Source of the DNA: an uncultured Planctomycetaceae bacterium
GTDB taxonomy: Bacteria; Planctomycetota; UBA8742; UBA2392; JABWBM01
Reading direction: 5' to 3'
NCBI GenBank assembly: GCA_964548115.1
Contig: CAZJPQ010000008.1
Location: 17,683 to 81,682 of the forward strand
DNA length: 64,000 nt
Under the pieces are notes generated by a model. That model was not told where the DNA came from and made no database searches. It saw nothing but the letters and a program-made list of their open reading frames with translations. Shown here piece after piece: positions 13,494 to 27,742 of this stretch (position 1 is the stretch's first letter; every line of letters starts with the position of its first letter). The translations under genes were made by a program, and so were the position numbers.

Positions 13494-15398
13494 ATGCCTG
13501 CAGAATCTCTTGAAGACGTAGTTTCTTTGTGTAAACGCCGAGGCTTTATTTTCCCAGGCTCAGCGATTTATGGTGGGCTTGCTAATTCGTGGGATTATGG
13601 ACCTCTTGGGATTGAACTTAAAAATAATCTTAAACGAGCGTGGTGGAGAGATGTCGTTTACCGTCGGGATGATATGGAGGGGCTTGATGCAGCCTTGATC
13701 ATGAATCCTAAGGTATGGCATTACTCTGGGCACGAGGCAACGTTCAATGATCCTTTGGTTGATAACAGGGTCAGTAAACATCGTTATCGTCTTGACCATC
13801 TTTTACGTTCCCAGAGTCTTGAAACTTTGAGGCAGTTGCTTTCAGAGCTGCTGCGTCTTACTTCTTCAAATGATTTTTCCGGCAGCAAAAGTTCAAGCTT
13901 TCTTTCATTACTTGCTTTTCTAAAAGGGAGCGACCTTTCTGAACAAGAGCAAGAAGAGGTTTGTGAGCTCGCTTTGAAATTACAAAGCGCAGCTTTACCT
14001 GAAGAAGCCGAGTTCAAGGGTGAGCGTTTTGAAGGAATTGTTTCAAGCTTTTGCTGTGATTTTCCAGAGTTTGGAAGCCTGGCTCTTAATCAGGCAAAAA
14101 TAGTTGATCCAACGACCAATGAACCAGGAGAGTGGACAGAACCGCGTCCCTTTAATCTGATGTTCGAAACCTTTGTTGGTCCAATTAAGAGTGAAGAGCA
14201 CAAGGCCTATTTACGTCCAGAAACGGCTCAGGGCATATTTGTTAATTTCAAACACATTCTGGATACCATGCGCCATAAACTGCCTTTTGGGATTGCTCAA
14301 ATTGGCAAAAGCTTTCGTAACGAAGTAACTCCAGGAAACTTCACCTTCCGGACGCGCGAATTTGAACAGATGGAAATTGAGTACTTTGTTAAACCAGGGG
14401 AAGATGAAGAAGCCCATCGATCTTGGGTCGATACTCGCTATAACTGGTATCTTGATTATGGTATTGCTGCTGAGCGTTTAAACAAGCGGGAACAAGGGTC
14501 AGAAGAGCTTGCACATTATGCTAAAGCGTGTGTCGATCTTGAGTACAAGTTTCCAGGCTCATTGGGATTTTCTGAGCTTGAGGGGATTGCAAATCGTACG
14601 GATTTTGATCTTGCTATGCACAGTAAGAGCAGCGAACTTGTCCAGCCAGTTCAAGCCAAACATGGTTTGGAAAAAAATGCTCACTCTCTTGATGAGCTCA
14701 GCTATTTTGATCCTGAAAGCAGGGAGCGCTTTATTCCTTATGTGATCGAGCCTTCAGCTGGGGCTGATCGAGCAACTTTAGCTTTTCTTTGTGAAGCTTA
14801 TAACGTCGAACAGATTAAAGATATTCCAGAAGCTCAAGAGTCTCAAGTATCTGACCAGCTCAAGGCGTTTTCAAAATCTGTTGAAAAAAACAAAGAGTTG
14901 GCAGAAGACCTAAAACAAAGGCTTTTCAATAAAGCTGCTGAAATTTTGGATGGTGGTCCAAAAGCTTTTCCAGCTATCGCCTCGCTCTTAAGCCTGAAGG
15001 GCGCAGATGCTATTGTTTTAGGCAAAAAGCTGCGCAACCTTTATGAACGTTTGGTTGATCAGTACTATCGTCGGGTATTGAAGCTTGATGCTCGCCTCGC
15101 TCCAATCAAAGTTGCAATCTTTCCTTTAAAGCGAAATGCTTCAGAACTTGTTACAAAAGCCCATGAAATTAAGGCTATGTTAAGTAAGCATGATTTCAGA
15201 GTCCTTTATGATGATACCGGTGCTATCGGGAAGCTTTATCGCAGACAAGATGAAATCGGAACCCCTTTTTGTGTTACCGTTGATTTTCAGTCGCTTGAAG
15301 ATGGCAGTGTAACACTACGGGAGCGGGACTCTATGGAGCAAACCCGTATAGCAGTCGATCAGCTTGAAGCACGTATCCGAAGCAGCTTAAATATTTAG
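13494..15398 (+). CDS. glyQS: Glycine--tRNA ligase, homodimeric (alpha2) type, with two large insertions
   Basis: LCKRRGFIFP, WDYGPLG, LRPETAQG, motif 2 FRNEVTPGNFTFRTREFEQME, IEPSAGADR, anticodon domain IGKLYRRQDEIGTP. Confidence 0.96.
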   Translation: MPAESLEDVVSLCKRRGFIFPGSAIYGGLANSWDYGPLGIELKNNLKRAWWRDVVYRRDDMEGLDAALIMNPKVWHYSGHEATFNDPLVDNRVSKHRYRLDHLLRSQSLETLRQLLSELLRLTSSNDFSGSKSSSFLSLLAFLKGSDLSEQEQEEVCELALKLQSAALPEEAEFKGERFEGIVSSFCCDFPEFGSLALNQAKIVDPTTNEPGEWTEPRPFNLMFETFVGPIKSEEHKAYLRPETAQGIFVNFKHILDTMRHKLPFGIAQIGKSFRNEVTPGNFTFRTREFEQMEIEYFVKPGEDEEAHRSWVDTRYNWYLDYGIAAERLNKREQGSEELAHYAKACVDLEYKFPGSLGFSELEGIANRTDFDLAMHSKSSELVQPVQAKHGLEKNAHSLDELSYFDPESRERFIPYVIEPSAGADRATLAFLCEAYNVEQIKDIPEAQESQVSDQLKAFSKSVEKNKELAEDLKQRLFNKAAEILDGGPKAFPAIASLLSLKGADAIVLGKKLRNLYERLVDQYYRRVLKLDARLAPIKVAIFPLKRNASELVTKAHEIKAMLSKHDFRVLYDDTGAIGKLYRRQDEIGTPFCVTVDFQSLEDGSVTLRERDSMEQTRIAVDQLEARIRSSLNI

Positions 15399-16383: not shown

Positions 16384-18849
16384 TTATTTATTTTCATCAA
16401 GAATTGGTATGAGAACTTCTTCGCCTGGAGCGAAAGGTCCAACTTCATATGTTTTTGTCTCTTCCTGGCGACCATTAAAATGATCCTCACCAGTCATCAG
16501 TGTCTTAACCGTAATTGTATATTTCTGATAGGGGAGAATGACCCATTGTTGATCAGAAATTCCTGCTCCTCGAAGCAGGAATTTTTTATAGCCTATTAGA
16601 CCATGATTTTGACTTCCTTCTTCTGGGGTAATCCAAGCCTCAAAAAAGCCGTCCTTTTTTTGATCTAAAGAGAGTTTTACTGCGAGTTCCAGGTTTGGAG
16701 AAAGAGTCTTTCTTTCACCTCCGAAAAGTAGAATCGTTTCAACTTTTGATAAGCTATCCTTTGAAAGAACCTGGAATCGATACTCTCCTGGAAAGACGGG
16801 TATAGAAATTTTTCCATTTTTTATGGTAGCCATACTGGGGGAGGTTTTGATTCTTCTTGTAATCGCATTGTACTCGCTGATATCAGGTTCATCACTCCTT
16901 TGGATATAGATCTGTCCGCCACCATCTATGTCAAGAGAGAGTATCGACACATCTTCTGGTTTGAAGTGAATCAGGATGGGCTTGTCTTTCTGCTTTAACC
17001 AATCCGTAAGATTAAAGTTTCGATGAGAGCCTGTGAAATCACGGATACTAAGCGTTACCTCAAAGACCCTCTCAAGAATAGTAGCCTCGCTAAGGTCGAT
17101 CGTTTCTCTGAATCTTCCATTTTCATCACTATAGTTTCCATAATCATAATCGTAGCTATATCCCTCTCCTTCACTGATGCGAACTCCCAGGGTATAAGGA
17201 ACGTTGCTCCAGGGAGTATCGCCGATTTGGATAGAACCCTGAATATTAAGGCTTTGTCCTGTCAGTTGAAGATCTCCAAGATCATAAAATTCTGAACCAT
17301 CGAGTGTCACAAAGAAGCTTCCAGAAGCAGAGAAAGGCTGATTTTCTTTTTTCCATAGAGCATCGATTTTAACTTTCAATGCTTTTTCTCGGCGAACATA
17401 GAACGAGAACTCCCCATTGTTATTGGCATTGCGGTCTCCCAGCGGTGGGGATGAGGATGAATCCGTAATATAGTTGTGAATTCTAAAACTTGCTCCTGCA
17501 CACGGTTTCCCGTTTTCATTTATAAAACGACCTGTGATCCAGGGGTTCTGTTTTGTAGCCATTACTTCTATAGTGCAATCGGTGTTTTCATTTGCACGTG
17601 TTTGAACTACAACTTGCTGACTTGTGTATACGACTTTCTCGGTGTCAGAAGTTTTGTCCACAGCTTTTACAACAAAGTCTTTATTTGGAGGAACGTTCTT
17701 AAAAATAGCGTTTCCATTATGGTCAGTATAGAGACGTTCAATGAGTTCTAACTCTTGAGTTTGGCTTGCTTTCAATTCACGCAAAAGTTCAACCCTGACA
17801 TTCGGTAAAGGAGTTTCAGTTTCAACAAGAACGTGAACTGTAATCGTAGAAAGAGCAGGTGCTGTTATGCTTTCAGAAGGAGTAGGTTCAGAAGGTTTTT
17901 CTTGGAGAGAGGATGGTTTTGTAACCGAGGAGGGTTCTTCAGAAGGTATTTGGTTAGGAACAGTTGTATTCTCCTTCTTTTGATCTTTCACCTGTTTTTG
18001 TGGTTGAGGAGAATCAATACCTTTCTTTGCCGCAATCTGTTCAGTGTTTTCTTTCTCTTTATGTATTCCAGAGAAGTCATAATTGAAAACTATGACAATA
18101 CATAGTAATGCCAGGATTATTGTTGCAGCCAAAGCTATTTTTTTTGCCATAATAAATCCTCCTAAGGCTAATATTGAAGTGGCGCCAATGGCACTATTTA
18201 CTTGAGTCATGATGTTTTGTGTAAGATTATTCGGTATATTGACAAGAGGCTGAACTCCTTCAGTGCTCAGCAGATCTTTGATTTGAAACCCTTGTGCCAG
18301 GCCAGGCAGTCCAAGTGTTGCAAACTTTTGTGCTAGTTGTTCTAGACCTTCTTTTTGTTTGCGGCGAACAGTGCTTGCAGGAATAGAGAGGGTTTGAGAA
18401 ATCTCTGAGGAGGTCAAACCATGGGCAAAACGCAAGTTAATGACATCACGTATATCACTCGGTAAACTTTTTACGAGTTCCCAGGCTTCGCAAGCCTGGG
18501 CATGAAGCGAGGGATTATTCGAATGCTCAAAAGTTTGAAAAGATTGTGCAGCGTATTGTTCTCTCATATGTCTATTTTTTCTTGATTTCAAGGCGTCATA
18601 AGCGCGGCGTGTCGCAACATGAAAAGAGAAGGTTTGTAGAGAATCTATTTTTTTACCATGACGAAAAGCTTTGTGCAGATTGAGGAAGGTTTCCTGAACG
18701 ACATCCTGAGCCATGTCTTTTTCATGAACGATGCTATAAGCGTAGCTGTAAAGAGAAGTGGCAAGAACATCAACAAGTTTCCTGAAGGCTTGCTGATCCC
18801 CTTTAAGAAGGTTTGGGAGAAGGTTTTCGAGATTGTTATTCCTTGCCAC
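16384..18849 (-). CDS. ECF sigma-70 factor fused to a transmembrane helix and a large extracytoplasmic region
   Basis: Region 2 AQDVVQETFL; region 4 LPSDIRDVINLRFAHGLTSSEISQTLSIPASTVRR; TM IALAATIILALLCIVIVF; P/S/E/T linker; carboxypeptidase-regulatory-like beta repeats (ITGRFINENGKPCAGA). Confidence 0.9.
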   Translation of the reverse strand: MARNNNLENLLPNLLKGDQQAFRKLVDVLATSLYSYAYSIVHEKDMAQDVVQETFLNLHKAFRHGKKIDSLQTFSFHVATRRAYDALKSRKNRHMREQYAAQSFQTFEHSNNPSLHAQACEAWELVKSLPSDIRDVINLRFAHGLTSSEISQTLSIPASTVRRKQKEGLEQLAQKFATLGLPGLAQGFQIKDLLSTEGVQPLVNIPNNLTQNIMTQVNSAIGATSILALGGFIMAKKIALAATIILALLCIVIVFNYDFSGIHKEKENTEQIAAKKGIDSPQPQKQVKDQKKENTTVPNQIPSEEPSSVTKPSSLQEKPSEPTPSESITAPALSTITVHVLVETETPLPNVRVELLRELKASQTQELELIERLYTDHNGNAIFKNVPPNKDFVVKAVDKTSDTEKVVYTSQQVVVQTRANENTDCTIEVMATKQNPWITGRFINENGKPCAGASFRIHNYITDSSSSPPLGDRNANNNGEFSFYVRREKALKVKIDALWKKENQPFSASGSFFVTLDGSEFYDLGDLQLTGQSLNIQGSIQIGDTPWSNVPYTLGVRISEGEGYSYDYDYGNYSDENGRFRETIDLSEATILERVFEVTLSIRDFTGSHRNFNLTDWLKQKDKPILIHFKPEDVSILSLDIDGGGQIYIQRSDEPDISEYNAITRRIKTSPSMATIKNGKISIPVFPGEYRFQVLSKDSLSKVETILLFGGERKTLSPNLELAVKLSLDQKKDGFFEAWITPEEGSQNHGLIGYKKFLLRGAGISDQQWVILPYQKYTITVKTLMTGEDHFNGRQEETKTYEVGPFAPGEEVLIPILDENK

Positions 18850-18888
18850 AGCCTGTTCCTCAGTTTCATGATCTCAAATGACAGTCGT

Positions 18889-19189: not shown

Positions 19190-20434
19190 CTAAGCTTCTT
19201 GTCCTTCATAAACCAGCGTTGCAATGGAGATTGGGTTAGTGATGCCTTTGACGTTGATTTCTCCTTTGCTGCGAAACTTAATGGCAACATCAAAACTTTC
19301 AGGGTTTTGAGCATAAAATGCTTTAACCTGTTCAAGAGTTGGCATGCCTGCTAATACTTCTCCACCTGAAGCATTACTGCAAAAGCGAGCTGCCAGGTTA
19401 ACGTGGTGGCCAAGCACAGTATACTGGCTGCTGCGTTCATCTCCAAAAAGACCAACCAGCATATCGCCAGTGTTAATGCCTACTCCAAGCTTAAGCATAT
19501 GGGGATATTCATTGAGAAGAGAAGGAGCTAAGAGTTCGCGCTCAATCCAGGACTGACGCACTGAAGACATTGCACTTTGAAGATCAACTGCCATGCGAAC
19601 GGCCTGGTAAGCATGGCCGGGATGATCAATAGGGGCTGAAAAAATGGCCATCACTTGATCACCCACAAATTTATCAAGGGTGGCTTCGTTGCGCTCGATT
19701 GCTTCCATACACAGGTGAAAGAATTCGTTGAAGACCTGTTGAACTTTTTCAGGAGGAGTCAGTTCACAGAATTTTGTGAAGCTTCGCAGGTCCCCAAAAA
19801 GAACGGTTAAGCTTCGTTTTTCAACGATAAAAGGATCTTCGCCAGTATCAAGCAGGCGAGTAACGATGCTTGGAGAAACCAAGCGCTCAAAGAATTCCCG
19901 TGTTTTTTTGAGCTTTGTAATATCCTCAAGGGTAAGGGTGCCTAGCCCACCGCTCCAAAGAGCTTTAAAATGAAAATGTTCTTCTTCTCCAGTGTTAACA
20001 TTAATGCGCGAAGCTTCAAATTCAGACGGAACATTATCACCAGCTTCCAGAGCATCTTTGAGAAGTGTCGTAAAAACCTGAGGCGCCCAATCAAGGTAAT
20101 CATAATCTTCAATTTTAGGCTTCCTGGAAACAATAGATTTATCCGTAGCTAAGAATTCAGCCATCTTCGTATTGAGTTGAGTAATACGATGTTCTTTGTC
20201 AACGACAAGATAGGCAATATCAAGGCCTGAGATTGATTTTTGTCCGCTGCCAATGCTTGCAGCCATACTTGTGCGCTGATTTGAAAGATAGCCGGACAGG
20301 CTATTCATGGATAGCGTGCCTCCTGGCTGATTGCCAGTTAAAAGGCGGAGCTTGCGCCGCAACTGCTGGTTTTCTTCCTGCAGCAGTTGAAGCTTTTCTT
20401 CGAGCTCTTTTTTTTCCTGTTTGCCTGTAAACAT
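19190..20434 (-). CDS. Class III adenylate cyclase with N-terminal coiled coil and PAS-like region
   Basis: LFGDLRSFT (metal-binding Asp), DKFVGDQVMAIF (adenine-specifying Lys, second Asp), GINTG, YTVLGHHVNLAAR (class IIIb Thr; catalytic Asn and Arg), VKGITNPI. Confidence 0.9.
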   Translation of the reverse strand: MFTGKQEKKELEEKLQLLQEENQQLRRKLRLLTGNQPGGTLSMNSLSGYLSNQRTSMAASIGSGQKSISGLDIAYLVVDKEHRITQLNTKMAEFLATDKSIVSRKPKIEDYDYLDWAPQVFTTLLKDALEAGDNVPSEFEASRINVNTGEEEHFHFKALWSGGLGTLTLEDITKLKKTREFFERLVSPSIVTRLLDTGEDPFIVEKRSLTVLFGDLRSFTKFCELTPPEKVQQVFNEFFHLCMEAIERNEATLDKFVGDQVMAIFSAPIDHPGHAYQAVRMAVDLQSAMSSVRQSWIERELLAPSLLNEYPHMLKLGVGINTGDMLVGLFGDERSSQYTVLGHHVNLAARFCSNASGGEVLAGMPTLEQVKAFYAQNPESFDVAIKFRSKGEINVKGITNPISIATLVYEGQEA

Positions 20435-26908: not shown

Positions 26909-27370
26909 TTAGCGAGCAGGTTTTAAATCTCCTGGATTTCTCAGCATTTTTTCAACTTCTGAAATATGGGCTTCTTCGGCTAAAATCATAGAACGAGCAT
27001 ATTCTTCAAGCCATACATTTTTGTCTTCAACTTCTTTGAGGAGCTCGTAATAAAGCTTAATGCTTTCCCGTTCATGTTCAAGGGTTTCGGTCAGGATGCT
27101 GTCGATGCTGTGCTGCTCCGTTTCAAGCAGTTTTCCTATTTTTAAAGAAGGGTGACCGCCAAGGCTCGTGATATGATCTCCAGCTTGATGGGCATGTACC
27201 AATGATTCATCAGCCTGGGTTCGCATCCAGCTGATAATAGGAATTCGGGCGTGACCAAAAATCATTAATGAATAATGAGTATAGCGAACAACTCCTGCAA
27301 GTTCCGTTTCAAGAATTGAATTTAAGGCTTCAATAACTTTATCTTTGTCGTAATTCTCTGATTGTTCCAT
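26909..27370 (-). CDS. Bacterioferritin-like ferritin superfamily protein (apparently lacks the heme-ligating Met)
   Basis: LETELAGVVRY, ADESLVHA, ITSLGGHP, EHE, EEAH ferroxidase pattern. Start chosen at the second Met, which follows AAGGAGG. Confidence 0.85.
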   Translation of the reverse strand: MEQSENYDKDKVIEALNSILETELAGVVRYTHYSLMIFGHARIPIISWMRTQADESLVHAHQAGDHITSLGGHPSLKIGKLLETEQHSIDSILTETLEHERESIKLYYELLKEVEDKNVWLEEYARSMILAEEAHISEVEKMLRNPGDLKPAR

Positions 27371-27742
27371 AACTTCCTCCTTCATAATCTTTCATGTGTT
27401 GCAGTGGTCTCGTTTCTCGTTTTATAAAGCACTTTTCTTTTGCTGAAAGAATAGTGCAGCTTTATTTTGCGTTATCTTAACTCTAAGACCTGCAAACTAC
27501 CAGTAGTTTTCTTTGGCTCCCTTGGATTCGTTCAAAGTAATAGCCTTAAAAACAAGAGTTTTGTTTTGTTTTCCGTGTTAAGGTATAACTTTGCTTTCTT
27601 CAATAGCATCAATAGCATTATACTTTTTAGAAGTCTGTTACGTTGTCGATTGAGGTAAGAATACTTATTTATAAAGATCTTGCGGAATACTTTTCAAGCT
27701 TGTGGTTTTGTTGTGCCGCTCGAGCATAAGGATTATGAAGTT

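Follow-up and report, generated by a model that had tools for sequence, protein, structure and literature searches.

A conserved internal Shine-Dalgarno sequence and start codon within a membrane-tethered ECF sigma factor fusion gene, and a probable second product lacking the sigma domain

Introduction

ECF sigma factors rank among the main signalling systems of bacteria. In the stretch of planctomycete DNA analysed here (64,000 nucleotides, hereafter the window), a minus-strand gene joins such a sigma factor to a membrane helix and an extracytoplasmic domain, and a sequence with the form of a ribosome-binding site followed by an ATG lies in frame inside it, directly before the helix. The locus raises the question of whether this sequence is the start of a second protein or only what the codons of a conserved peptide happen to spell. 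Many groups of one-component fusions between a sigma factor and a sensor are unstudied, and their control is largely unknown (PMC8999054). The reading that we favour, with a probability of about 0.6, is that a conserved internal start yields a sigma-less, membrane-anchored isoform of 588 aa.

Architecture of the fusion protein

The sigma domain, the membrane helix and the extracytoplasmic domain share one uninterrupted frame of 821 aa, whose parts are the following.

16384..18849, minus strand: full-length gene, 821 aa, GTG start at 18849; ECF sigma factor, one membrane helix and an extracytoplasmic beta-sandwich stalk
18856..18861, minus strand: weak SD-like GAGGAA of the primary start, 6 nt before the GTG; predicted anti-SD pairing -6.1 kcal/mol
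18316..18849, minus strand: sigma domain, residues 1-178, regions 2 and 4 (Pfam, TIGR02937, structural model, Foldseek)
18151..18315, minus strand: linker, residues 179-233, with an invariant Pro206 and the pre-helix Gly230-Gly231 (alignments A1 and A2)
18073..18147, minus strand: membrane helix, residues 235-259, Lys236-Lys237 preceding (hydropathy 2.86 and AlphaFold2 model)
17860..18072, minus strand: extracytoplasmic spacer, residues 260-330, Pro/Ser/Glu-rich and disordered (translation and pLDDT)
16387..17859, minus strand: tandem beta-sandwich stalk, residues 331-821, CarboxypepD_reg/prealbumin-like

The N-terminal domain is that of an ECF (group 4) sigma factor, with regions 2 and 4 found by Pfam (Sigma70_r2 at residues 30-91 and Sigma70_r4 at 127-172) and r3 and r1 not found. 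The protein scores 70.3 bits against TIGR02937 (sigma70-ECF), for which the cut-off is 42.9; the AlphaFold2 model has a pLDDT above 90 across residues 11-180, and the structure of this domain matches sigmaE, SigW and AlgU in Foldseek. The linker is modelled with a pLDDT of 33-35 between residues 196 and 234, and its conserved motifs are short only (Pro206, and 'LGK.AL.G' in relatives). No anti-sigma family of Pfam was detected at E<=0.1 in the window protein, linker included, be it FecR-like or of the zinc-finger kind. After Met234, the residue just N-terminal to it, AlphaFold2 predicts a long membrane-spanning signal-anchor helix (235-259). Most of the segment 259-325 has a pLDDT below 50, and the stalk that follows is modelled as all-beta, residues 334-620 being the confident part. 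Besides CarboxypepD_reg (335-414), SpaA-like domains are present in this stalk, which resembles pilins, adhesin repeats and the S-layer stalk SlaB in structure (Foldseek) and matches 8qox_B in sequence.

The same architecture, that is, a sigma domain, a helix and beta-sandwiches in one frame, is found in hundreds of relatives. A HMMER search returned 246 relatives at E<=1e-10, many of 600-1300 aa, which match residues 5-250 of the query; therefore, the sigma domain, the linker and the helix form one conserved unit. A profile search added 306 further proteins that combine a sigma domain with CarboxypepD_reg. Named relatives of the sigma fusion belong mostly to Candidatus Hydrogenedentota. For close relatives, a word-index search with the whole protein returned only the window protein itself. 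A taxonomic comparison based on GlyRS was uninformative, the best hit being 60% identical and the next, from Polyangia MAGs, about 57%.

The internal Shine-Dalgarno element

The element and the product that it would specify occupy the following positions.

18158..18163, minus strand: internal Shine-Dalgarno sequence AGGAGG, from TTA-GGA-GGA (Leu229-Gly230-Gly231)
18148..18150, minus strand: internal in-frame start ATG (Met234), 7 nt after the SD
16384..18150, minus strand: predicted second product, a sigma-less membrane-anchored isoform (residues 234-821, 588 aa), proposed from the conserved SD and start

On the minus strand the site reads TTAGGAGGATTTATTATGGCAAAAAAAATAGCT. The spacer ATTTATT corresponds to 18157-18151, and the ATG at 18150 is codon 234 of the frame since (18849-18150)/3+1 = 234. 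The first-pass annotation had reported this hexamer, the 7-nt spacer and the in-frame Met234, as well as the peptide that begins there, MAKKIALAATIILALLCIVIVF; sequence and ORF agree with it on every one of these points. The gene thus has an SD-like sequence 5-10 nt 5' of a start codon that is in frame inside an ORF, which is the arrangement expected of an iTIS. The predicted pairing of the internal SD with the anti-SD is -10.2 kcal/mol and beats that of 40 of the 41 putative gene starts of the window. The organism uses SD sequences, as its gene starts outscore internal controls (p = 1.4e-5). In the window gene, mRNA folding at the site is average (z = 0.16). A scan for promoters and terminators gave nothing exceeding shuffles, and no internal promoter. 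A search among sequencing runs returned none that contains this stretch.

Taken by itself, the window says little about function. The pattern AGGAGG-N5-9-ATG occurs five times on its two strands against 2.2 expected, a count that 5 of 100 shuffles reach. Sense-strand AGGAGG is not depleted, with 13 copies in 54.7 kb of putative coding sequence where composition predicts about nine (an estimate); in three of the 13 an ATG follows in frame after 5-10 nt, and one of these three is probably a true gene start. GGA makes up 31% of the Gly codons of the window and 50% of those of the sigma fusion gene. The SD of this gene alone can be explained by its Leu-Gly-Gly codons together with this preference for GGA. 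The SD-ATG of the single sequence is real, yet its significance is absent without homologues, because motif counts are near chance and GGA is common.

Conservation of the element in homologous genes

At the protein level, the motif GG-x(2-3)-M-x(0-1)-KK recurs in the family directly N-terminal to the membrane helix. In the family alignment, Gly230, Gly231 and Lys236 are invariant or nearly so; 68 of 87 proteins have a Met among the five residues that come just before the basic pair, and in 46 of 52 the gap between GG and Met measures 2-3 residues (7 or 10 nt). There are also many members without the motif, or without any Met N-terminal to the helix, and among family proteins the presence of the Met shows no statistical association with that of GG.

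The first-pass annotation had proposed that, if the site is a start, synonymous codons resembling an SD should be enriched before the conserved Met in homologous genes, and that a match explained by Gly-Gly codons alone would count against it. The codon comparison was made on 17 genes, the window gene and 16 relatives, which were selected on the protein motif only. For this purpose, genomes and metagenomes were scanned using alignment A2 with a generic sigma-region-2 pattern, and among the 160 loci listed about 20 were family members, four of them with GG..KK; the DNA of other relatives came from 12 exact-protein matches. Alignment A1 combines two subfamilies, and a second motif-bearing subfamily (P0028, P0049, P0082 and similar) stands outside the codon comparison.

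The outcome was positive. The first Gly codon of the motif is GGA, which creates GGAGG, in 14 of the 17 genes (GGG in two and GGC in one) against approximately 3.7 expected, and with the window gene excluded the excess has a Poisson-binomial p of 1.3e-7. In the 16 relatives GGA is a minor codon, with 12-36% of the Gly codons. Among control Gly-Gly pairs in these genes, only 20 of 127 have GGA (Fisher p = 6e-8); with GGA at 16% there, a general bias in the codons of Gly-Gly pairs is ruled out, and the SD is more than the usual spelling of this dipeptide. Six other conserved Gly columns have 50-79% GGC, and A is the top third base only in the columns of Gly230 (13/16) and Gly231 (10/17). Among the homologues, pairwise amino-acid identity is at most 55% and third-position identity is 0.31-0.41, which we read as saturation, and on this reading shared ancestry of the silent sites is ruled out as well. 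The same divergence contradicts an origin of all GGAGG-bearing genes by recent duplication. The retention of a minor codon in 14 of 17 genes despite saturated silent sites therefore reflects ongoing selection and not inheritance. The test genes contain 223 in-frame internal ATGs, of which 11 have GGAGG 5-11 nt upstream, and ten of these 11 are the conserved pre-helix site. Thus, this comparison of coding sequences shows that the internal SD is evidently maintained across the wider family by selection on silent codon positions, at the spacing from SD to start.

Other features of the mRNA point in the same direction. In the family, the mRNA at the site is less structured than the genes are on average (mean z +1.03, p = 7e-6) and also less structured than synonymous resamples (combined p = 9e-4). 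In 10 of 11 genes, the internal SD surpasses the primary one in strength (-10.0 vs -6.5 kcal/mol, p = 0.003). In more distant relatives GGAG is retained under other residues: Pro-Gly-Val in L003 CCGGGAGTG, Lys-Gly-Ala in L013 AAAGGAGCG and Glu-Gly-Ala in L085 GAAGGAGCG.

As to its composition, part of the weak-structure signal is due to the A-rich Lys codons expected of any membrane anchor.

Since the signal is kept by silent-site selection in the relatives, a membrane protein without the sigma domain is a probable second product of the fusion gene. Identity between the window protein and the relatives in which the codon signal was found is only 20-28%, so the transfer of the signal to the window gene rests on the shared motif; judged by this homology, the SD-ATG copy of the window is probably functional, and the internal SD-ATG would be used for initiation. 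The earlier proposal of two products from one gene, the full fusion and a sigma-free isoform that is membrane-bound or exported, is in this way the best-supported reading, by virtue of the silent-codon enrichment; the second product itself is a prediction.

Alternative explanations

A first alternative is that the conserved GGAGG is an SD-like element at which elongating ribosomes pause near the codons of the helix, for example to coordinate the folding of the sigma domain or membrane targeting, without any start; the Met would then be a feature of the protein. Silent-site selection shows that the RNA sequence matters and leaves its role unspecified, and the lack of coupling between GG and Met suits a pause. 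Genes in which the Met is missing speak to both readings. Two of four such variants have GTG at SD spacing, namely L170 (GGAGGG, 7 nt, GTG) and L172 (GGAGGA, 10 nt, GTG); in L169 the SD is gone and the equivalent Val GTG lies outside SD spacing, and in L171 GGAGGA is retained but no canonical start codon follows at a suitable distance, a pattern that would suit a pause element. Pausing, however, leaves unexplained why a Met or a GTG-coded Val stands at exactly 7 or 10 nt, why the mRNA is less structured than synonymous expectation and why the primary SD is the weaker of the two. Moreover, a pause at this SD would precede the synthesis of the helix and so could not help its recognition. SD-driven pausing in vivo has reportedly been seriously questioned by Mohammad et al. 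in 2016 and again in 2019. We consider a pause element unlikely. As an observation apart, locus L004 had the appearance of a natural 'split' version of the fusion gene and was rejected, given that its contig is multiply frameshifted.

Slightly less probable still is that, whatever the distant relatives do, the window copy is no start and its SD-ATG is a by-product of the protein motif Leu-Gly-Gly...Met-x-Lys-Lys and of GGA-rich codon usage. Several observations fit this explanation: half of the Gly codons of the gene are GGA, AGGAGG is not depleted from coding sequence, the pattern count barely exceeds that of shuffles, folding at the site is average, and the word-index search gave no close relatives. 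Yet 16 independent relatives with the same motif show strong selection for GGAGG at silent sites, and therefore the best explanation of GG..M.KK is that it is the trace which an initiation region leaves in the protein. In addition, in an organism that uses SD sequences, one would expect ribosomes to be drawn to a perfect AGGAGG followed by 7 nt, an ATG and an A-rich stretch.

The site could also be a fossil, the old ribosome-binding site and start of a separate membrane-protein gene that was joined to the sigma gene when a stop codon disappeared; the site would be functionless now. The order of the parts, a sigma factor and then a membrane protein, resembles that of sigma/anti-sigma operons, and in P0077 the C-terminal module is found as a stand-alone signal-anchored protein. 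This possibility, which the first-pass annotation had raised as the seam of a sigma and anti-sigma gene fusion, is very improbable as far as a mere relic is concerned: the minor codon GGA has been kept although third positions read as saturated, and a conserved linker of 55 residues separates sigma region 4 from Met234, so that simple loss of a stop codon at the site is unlikely. Finally, it is scarcely credible that the SD-like element and the run of eight A (18145-18138) drive dnaX-like -1 frameshifting or transcriptional slippage to give a truncated soluble sigma factor: in the window the A run starts at the A of GCA, 12 nt after AGGAGG, and L001 has A-AAA-AAG, but the Lys codons of most homologues are AAG-AAA or AAG-AAG, neither of which makes a slippery heptamer, the distance from SD to Lys varies (approximately 13 to 19 nt) against a fixed distance from SD to ATG, and by manual reading the -1 frame of the window gene continues for some 20 codons before a stop; a dnaX-type shift was rejected because no slippery heptamer X-XXY-YYZ is conserved at a fixed distance from the SD.

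Proposed mechanism

On the preferred reading, that of a conserved internal start, the gene would encode a signalling device on one polypeptide, formed by the ECF sigma factor (residues 1-178), a flexible conserved linker, the helix (235-259) and a stalk directed outwards. A putative translation initiation region, complete with AGGAGG, 7 nt, ATG and A-rich Lys codons, lies within the coding sequence at the N-terminal helix cap. Ribosomes binding at the internal SD would make the 588-aa second protein without the sigma domain, comprising a cytoplasmic tail of three residues (Ala-Lys-Lys after Met234), the membrane helix and the stalk. This isoform, probably in excess, would associate or compete with the full-length fusion, and the interplay between the two may set the threshold for the release of the tethered sigma factor, presumably through regulated proteolysis by analogy with IutY/ECF52-type fusions. 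The idea of the first-pass annotation that the sigma-free isoform titrates the sensor or its protease is speculative, and no obvious protease gene linked to the sigma fusion was seen among the ORFs of the window between 14 and 22 kb.

It may tentatively be suggested that membrane-tethered ECF fusions are dual-coding in general. A weaker primary start would give the tethered sigma factor and a stronger internal start an excess of stalk; both products could co-assemble through their identical membrane and outside parts, proteolysis and release of the sigma factor would depend on their ratio, and this stoichiometric brake would replace a separate anti-sigma factor.

Comparison with known systems

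ArcB-C of E. coli offers a precedent for an internal start of this type: its synthesis begins at a GUG with a conserved SD, both inside the gene of a membrane sensor and placed where two domains meet (Meydan et al., bioRxiv 10.1101/520783). As in that case, an SD-like sequence and a start are conserved within the ORF of a signalling protein anchored in the membrane, exactly between two domains, and a separate C-terminal module is the predicted product. ArcB-C itself, a phosphotransfer domain that is soluble and cytoplasmic, was demonstrated by western blot and Ribo-RET (bioRxiv 10.1101/520783), in contrast with the product predicted here, which is the membrane and extracytoplasmic part of a sigma fusion and is known from sequence comparison alone.

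With regard to the fusion itself, IutY of Pseudomonas putida is an ECF243 sigma/anti-sigma hybrid, and the ECF48/52/53 groups include fusions such as SCO4117 (PMC8999054). The window protein shares with them an N-terminal ECF sigma factor, one or more membrane helices and an extracytoplasmic sensor on one polypeptide, and the expected mode of activation, release of the sigma factor by regulated proteolysis, is predicted here by analogy. Unlike these proteins, which have a FecR-like or zinc-finger anti-sigma part, it has no detected anti-sigma domain in its linker, and its outside part is a stalk of CarboxypepD_reg-like beta-sandwiches. Full-text literature searches found no internal start described in IutY or in the ECF48/52/53 fusions.

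The arrangement also recalls the RpoE-RseA and SigW-RsiW operons, in which a sigma factor and a single-pass membrane partner come from one transcript; here, too, two starts would give two proteins at a ratio set by translation. The difference is that no stop codon separates the two parts here, so that the upstream start gives a covalent fusion, and that the predicted second product would lack a cytoplasmic domain for binding the sigma factor, having a tail of three residues only. On the best reading, the internal start adds to two kinds of system that are already known, internal start sites such as that of ArcB-C and sigma fusions of the IutY/ECF52 type.

Implications

A conserved 'protein motif' such as GG..M.KK can reflect a signal in the RNA. 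Annotation is affected, because no second product is ever called, and the point is also relevant where such sigma factors serve as orthogonal switches in heterologous hosts. If the conserved site indeed acts as a start, these fusion genes would encode two proteins at a ratio fixed by translation, and this ratio would provide a concrete and testable model of how sigma fusions are regulated.

Probable internal start site and architecture of the window protein

The only long ORF at the internal site is 16384-18849 (-), which starts with GTG and codes for 821 aa; the surrounding minus-strand sequence is TTAGGAGGATTTATTATGGCAAAAAAAATAGCT. The first-pass annotation had claimed an AGGAGG followed after 7 nt by an in-frame ATG at Met234, and this was confirmed from the window sequence and the ORF frame; since the ATG is in-frame codon 234, the observation was correct as written.

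Features at the internal site, from the window sequence
18163-18158, minus strand: AGGAGG
7 nt, minus strand: spacer between AGGAGG and ATG
18150-18148, minus strand: internal ATG, codon 234, in frame with the window gene
18145-18138, minus strand: run of eight A directly after the internal ATG (GCA AAA AAA ATA), a potential slippage site

Judged alone, this AGGAGG-ATG is no more than chance can give. The window contains five instances of AGGAGG-N5-9-ATG where 2.2 are expected (at least five in 5 of 100 shuffles), and an in-frame ATG follows 3 of the 13 sense-strand AGGAGG found across 54.7 kb of putative coding sequence. The hexamer arises from Leu-Gly-Gly codons, in a gene of lower G+C than its relatives, where half of the Gly codons are GGA. 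SD-like (Shine-Dalgarno) sequences are enriched at gene starts of this organism (p = 1.4e-5), and the predicted anti-SD pairing of the internal site, -10.2 kcal/mol, beats that of 40 of 41 putative starts in the window. The only putative gene start with an SD of equal strength belongs to ORF 26909-27385 (-), which opens with ATGAAGGAGGAAGTTATG; its second ATG (27370-27368), with a perfect AGGAGG 5 nt upstream, is probably the true start. Another AGGAGG, 10 nt before an in-frame ATG (20324-20306, minus strand; peptide PGGTLSMNS, about codon 43), lies after the coiled-coil-like N-terminus of the adjoining adenylate/guanylate-cyclase-like gene (ORF 19190-20434); it could mark the real start of that gene, be an internal start or be a chance match.

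The window protein matches Sigma70_r2 (30-91), Sigma70_r4 (127-172) and a CarboxypepD_reg-like domain (335-414) in Pfam, and scores 70.3 bits with the NCBIfam ECF superfamily model (cut-off 42.9). An AlphaFold2 model based on 75 relatives gave the following regions.

Regions of the window protein in the AlphaFold2 model
Residues 11-180: sigma domain (pLDDT above 90)
Residues 196-234: linker (pLDDT 33-35)
Residues 235-259: helix
Residues 259-330: disordered Pro/Ser/Glu spacer (low confidence)
Residues 334-620: tandem beta-sandwiches (confident)
Residues 620-821: further beta-sandwiches (less certain)

Foldseek related the N-terminus to sigmaE, SigW and AlgU, and the rest to pilins, adhesin repeats, macroglobulin domains and the S-layer stalk protein SlaB; a weak sequence match to 8qox_B was also found. 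From these results, the product is predicted to be a single polypeptide joining an ECF sigma factor, a membrane helix and an extracytoplasmic stalk, with Met234 as the last residue before the helix. Fusions in which an ECF sigma factor carries a membrane-spanning, anti-sigma-like extension are already known, i.e., IutY and ECF48/52/53 (PMC8999054). In contrast to IutY and ECF52, the window protein has no anti-sigma domain recognisable in the Pfam scan or the AlphaFold2 model, and on the outside it has a stalk of beta-sandwiches.

The fusion family and the motif before the helix

An exhaustive HMMER search yielded 246 relatives at E<=1e-10, many of them with 600-1300 aa and aligned to query residues 5-250; therefore sigma domain, linker and helix form one conserved unit. 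A profile search added 306 proteins with a sigma domain and CarboxypepD_reg repeats. Among the matches listed, the named records are mainly Candidatus Hydrogenedentota, with some from the FCB group or Planctomycetes. A database search with the whole protein found no close relative of the window fusion, and identity to the signal-carrying relatives is only 20-28%. The C-terminal module also occurs as an independent signal-anchored protein, P0077 (608 aa). P0077 has a signal anchor at its N-terminus (MTRTRSKNSATLVVVLLFLL...) and a spacer of low complexity, and its residues 74-606 share homology with residues 288-816 of the query; it therefore represents the sensor stalk without any sigma domain.

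The family member of locus L001 (contig DATKVG010000043.1) and the proteins P0165 and P0174 are labelled 'Candidatus Bathyarchaeia archaeon'; because these contigs carry a bacterial ECF sigma fusion, they appear to be mis-binned bacterial DNA. In L166 (1-209), a second ECF sigma fusion (724 aa, truncated where the locus ends) lies immediately upstream of the family member; its C-terminal part matches retropepsin-like aspartic protease families (Asp_protease_2, gag-asp_proteas), and a PAS/histidine-kinase/receiver gene comes after it. The homologue in L004 (3001-5400, a long-read MAG) is disrupted by several frameshifts, its sigma part running into a Pro/Arg-rich out-of-frame tail and its beta-sandwich part going on in other frames; the gene is either a pseudogene or the result of assembly errors. 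At 634 aa, the window glycyl-tRNA synthetase (13494-15398, plus strand) exceeds its nearest relatives (543-545 aa) by about 90 residues; they span only about 66% of it, and the best full-length relative is 60% identical; this lineage appears to be very poorly sampled.

In many relatives the motif GG-x(2-3)-M-x(0-1)-KK immediately precedes the helix (e.g., LGGLVMSKK, GGIIMTKQ, LGGFGLMAKK). Gly231 and Pro206 are invariant in an alignment of 27 sequences, and Gly230 and Lys236 nearly so. Met falls within the five residues before the basic pair in 68 of the 87 family proteins that have such a pair and then a helix, and the gap from GG to Met is 2 or 3 residues in 46 of 52, i.e., 7 or 10 nt from GGNGG to ATG.

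Selection on silent sites and the putative initiation region

The DNA of 16 relatives, picked by protein motif alone before their codons were seen, was obtained from collection scans (4, among the matches listed) and exact-protein look-ups (12); with the window gene, 17 genes were compared. The first Gly codon of the motif is GGA, giving GGAGG, in 14 of 17, GGG in two and GGC in one. The relatives' genes have 53-73% G+C, and of their Gly codons 12-36% are GGA and about half GGC; 3.7 GGA were expected (Poisson-binomial p 1.3e-7 without the window gene), and GGA stands at 20 of 127 control Gly-Gly pairs elsewhere in these genes (Fisher p = 6e-8). The SD-like synonymous codons that the first-pass annotation proposed to look for before the pre-helix Met are thus enriched.

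In a codon alignment limited to the first 280 residues, A is the top third base only at Gly230 (13/16) and Gly231 (10/17) among the conserved Gly columns, the six others being 50-79% GGC. Residues 226-234 are among the top windows for excess codon identity, and are the sole top signal pointing to a minor codon. Pairwise protein identity among the tested genes is at most 55%, and third-position identity at identical four-fold residues is 0.31-0.41; this reads as the level given by shared codon bias alone, so the silent sites were taken as independent. Of the 223 in-frame internal ATGs in the tested genes, 11 are preceded by GGAGG at 5-11 nt, and ten of these are the internal site.

Structure in the 40 nt around the internal start is below the same-gene average (mean z +1.03, p = 7e-6) and also below that of resampled synonymous sequences for this peptide (combined p = 9e-4); A-rich Lys codons account for part of this weakness. 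In 10 of 11 genes, the internal start has stronger predicted anti-SD pairing than the primary one (-10.0 versus -6.5 kcal/mol, p = 0.003), and GGAG-type SDs are common at genes neighbouring family members in the relatives' contigs. Four variants lacking the Met were examined: L170 has GGAGGG, 7 nt and GTG; L172 has GGAGGA, 10 nt and GTG; L171 retains GGAGGA with no canonical start at the right distance; and L169 has lost the SD, its Val GTG lying off SD spacing. Distant relatives keep GGAG before Met despite other residues: CCG-GGA-GTG in L003, AAA-GGA-GCG in L013 (a Kiritimatiellia MAG) and GAA-GGA-GCG in L085.

Taken together, selection in this family very probably acts on an RNA element, GGAGG(A/G) located 7-10 nt upstream of a conserved ATG or GTG at the membrane-helix cap, and internal translation initiation would be its simplest function. 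A pause for elongating ribosomes would also account for the silent-site selection; however, it leaves unexplained the start codon at fixed spacing and the weak structure past synonymous expectation, and its timing does not fit because the helix is not yet synthesised at that point. Chance together with the protein motif is a possible source of the window copy alone, but is rejected at the family level. Against a functionless scar of the fusion stand the silent sites, saturated between homologues, and the conserved linker upstream of Met234. Finally, the eight-A run that dnaX-like frameshifting would use is not conserved in the homologues.

A putative sigma-less isoform

In-frame internal starts that produce truncated isoforms are established; ArcB-C of E. 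coli arises from a conserved SD-like sequence and a GUG located where two domains of a membrane sensor meet (bioRxiv 10.1101/520783). Full-text literature searches turned up no description of internal starts in ECF sigma membrane fusions. We give a probability of about 0.6 to the full statement, read from sequence, that the window gene makes two proteins through its internal start. Ribosomes starting at the internal ATG would produce a signal-anchored isoform that lacks the sigma domain; for the window gene its length would be 588 aa. If GGAGG is an internal initiation signal, the GG..M.KK motif would largely reflect, at the protein level, a ribosome-binding site and start codon together with the positive charges at the N-terminus of a membrane anchor. 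Sigma release would presumably occur by regulated proteolysis, by analogy with IutY and ECF52-type fusions. Since both forms would have the same membrane and outside parts, and the stronger SD is the internal one, we infer that sensor-only subunits would be in excess, and that they may assemble together with the tethered sigma factor or compete with it, thereby tuning its release.
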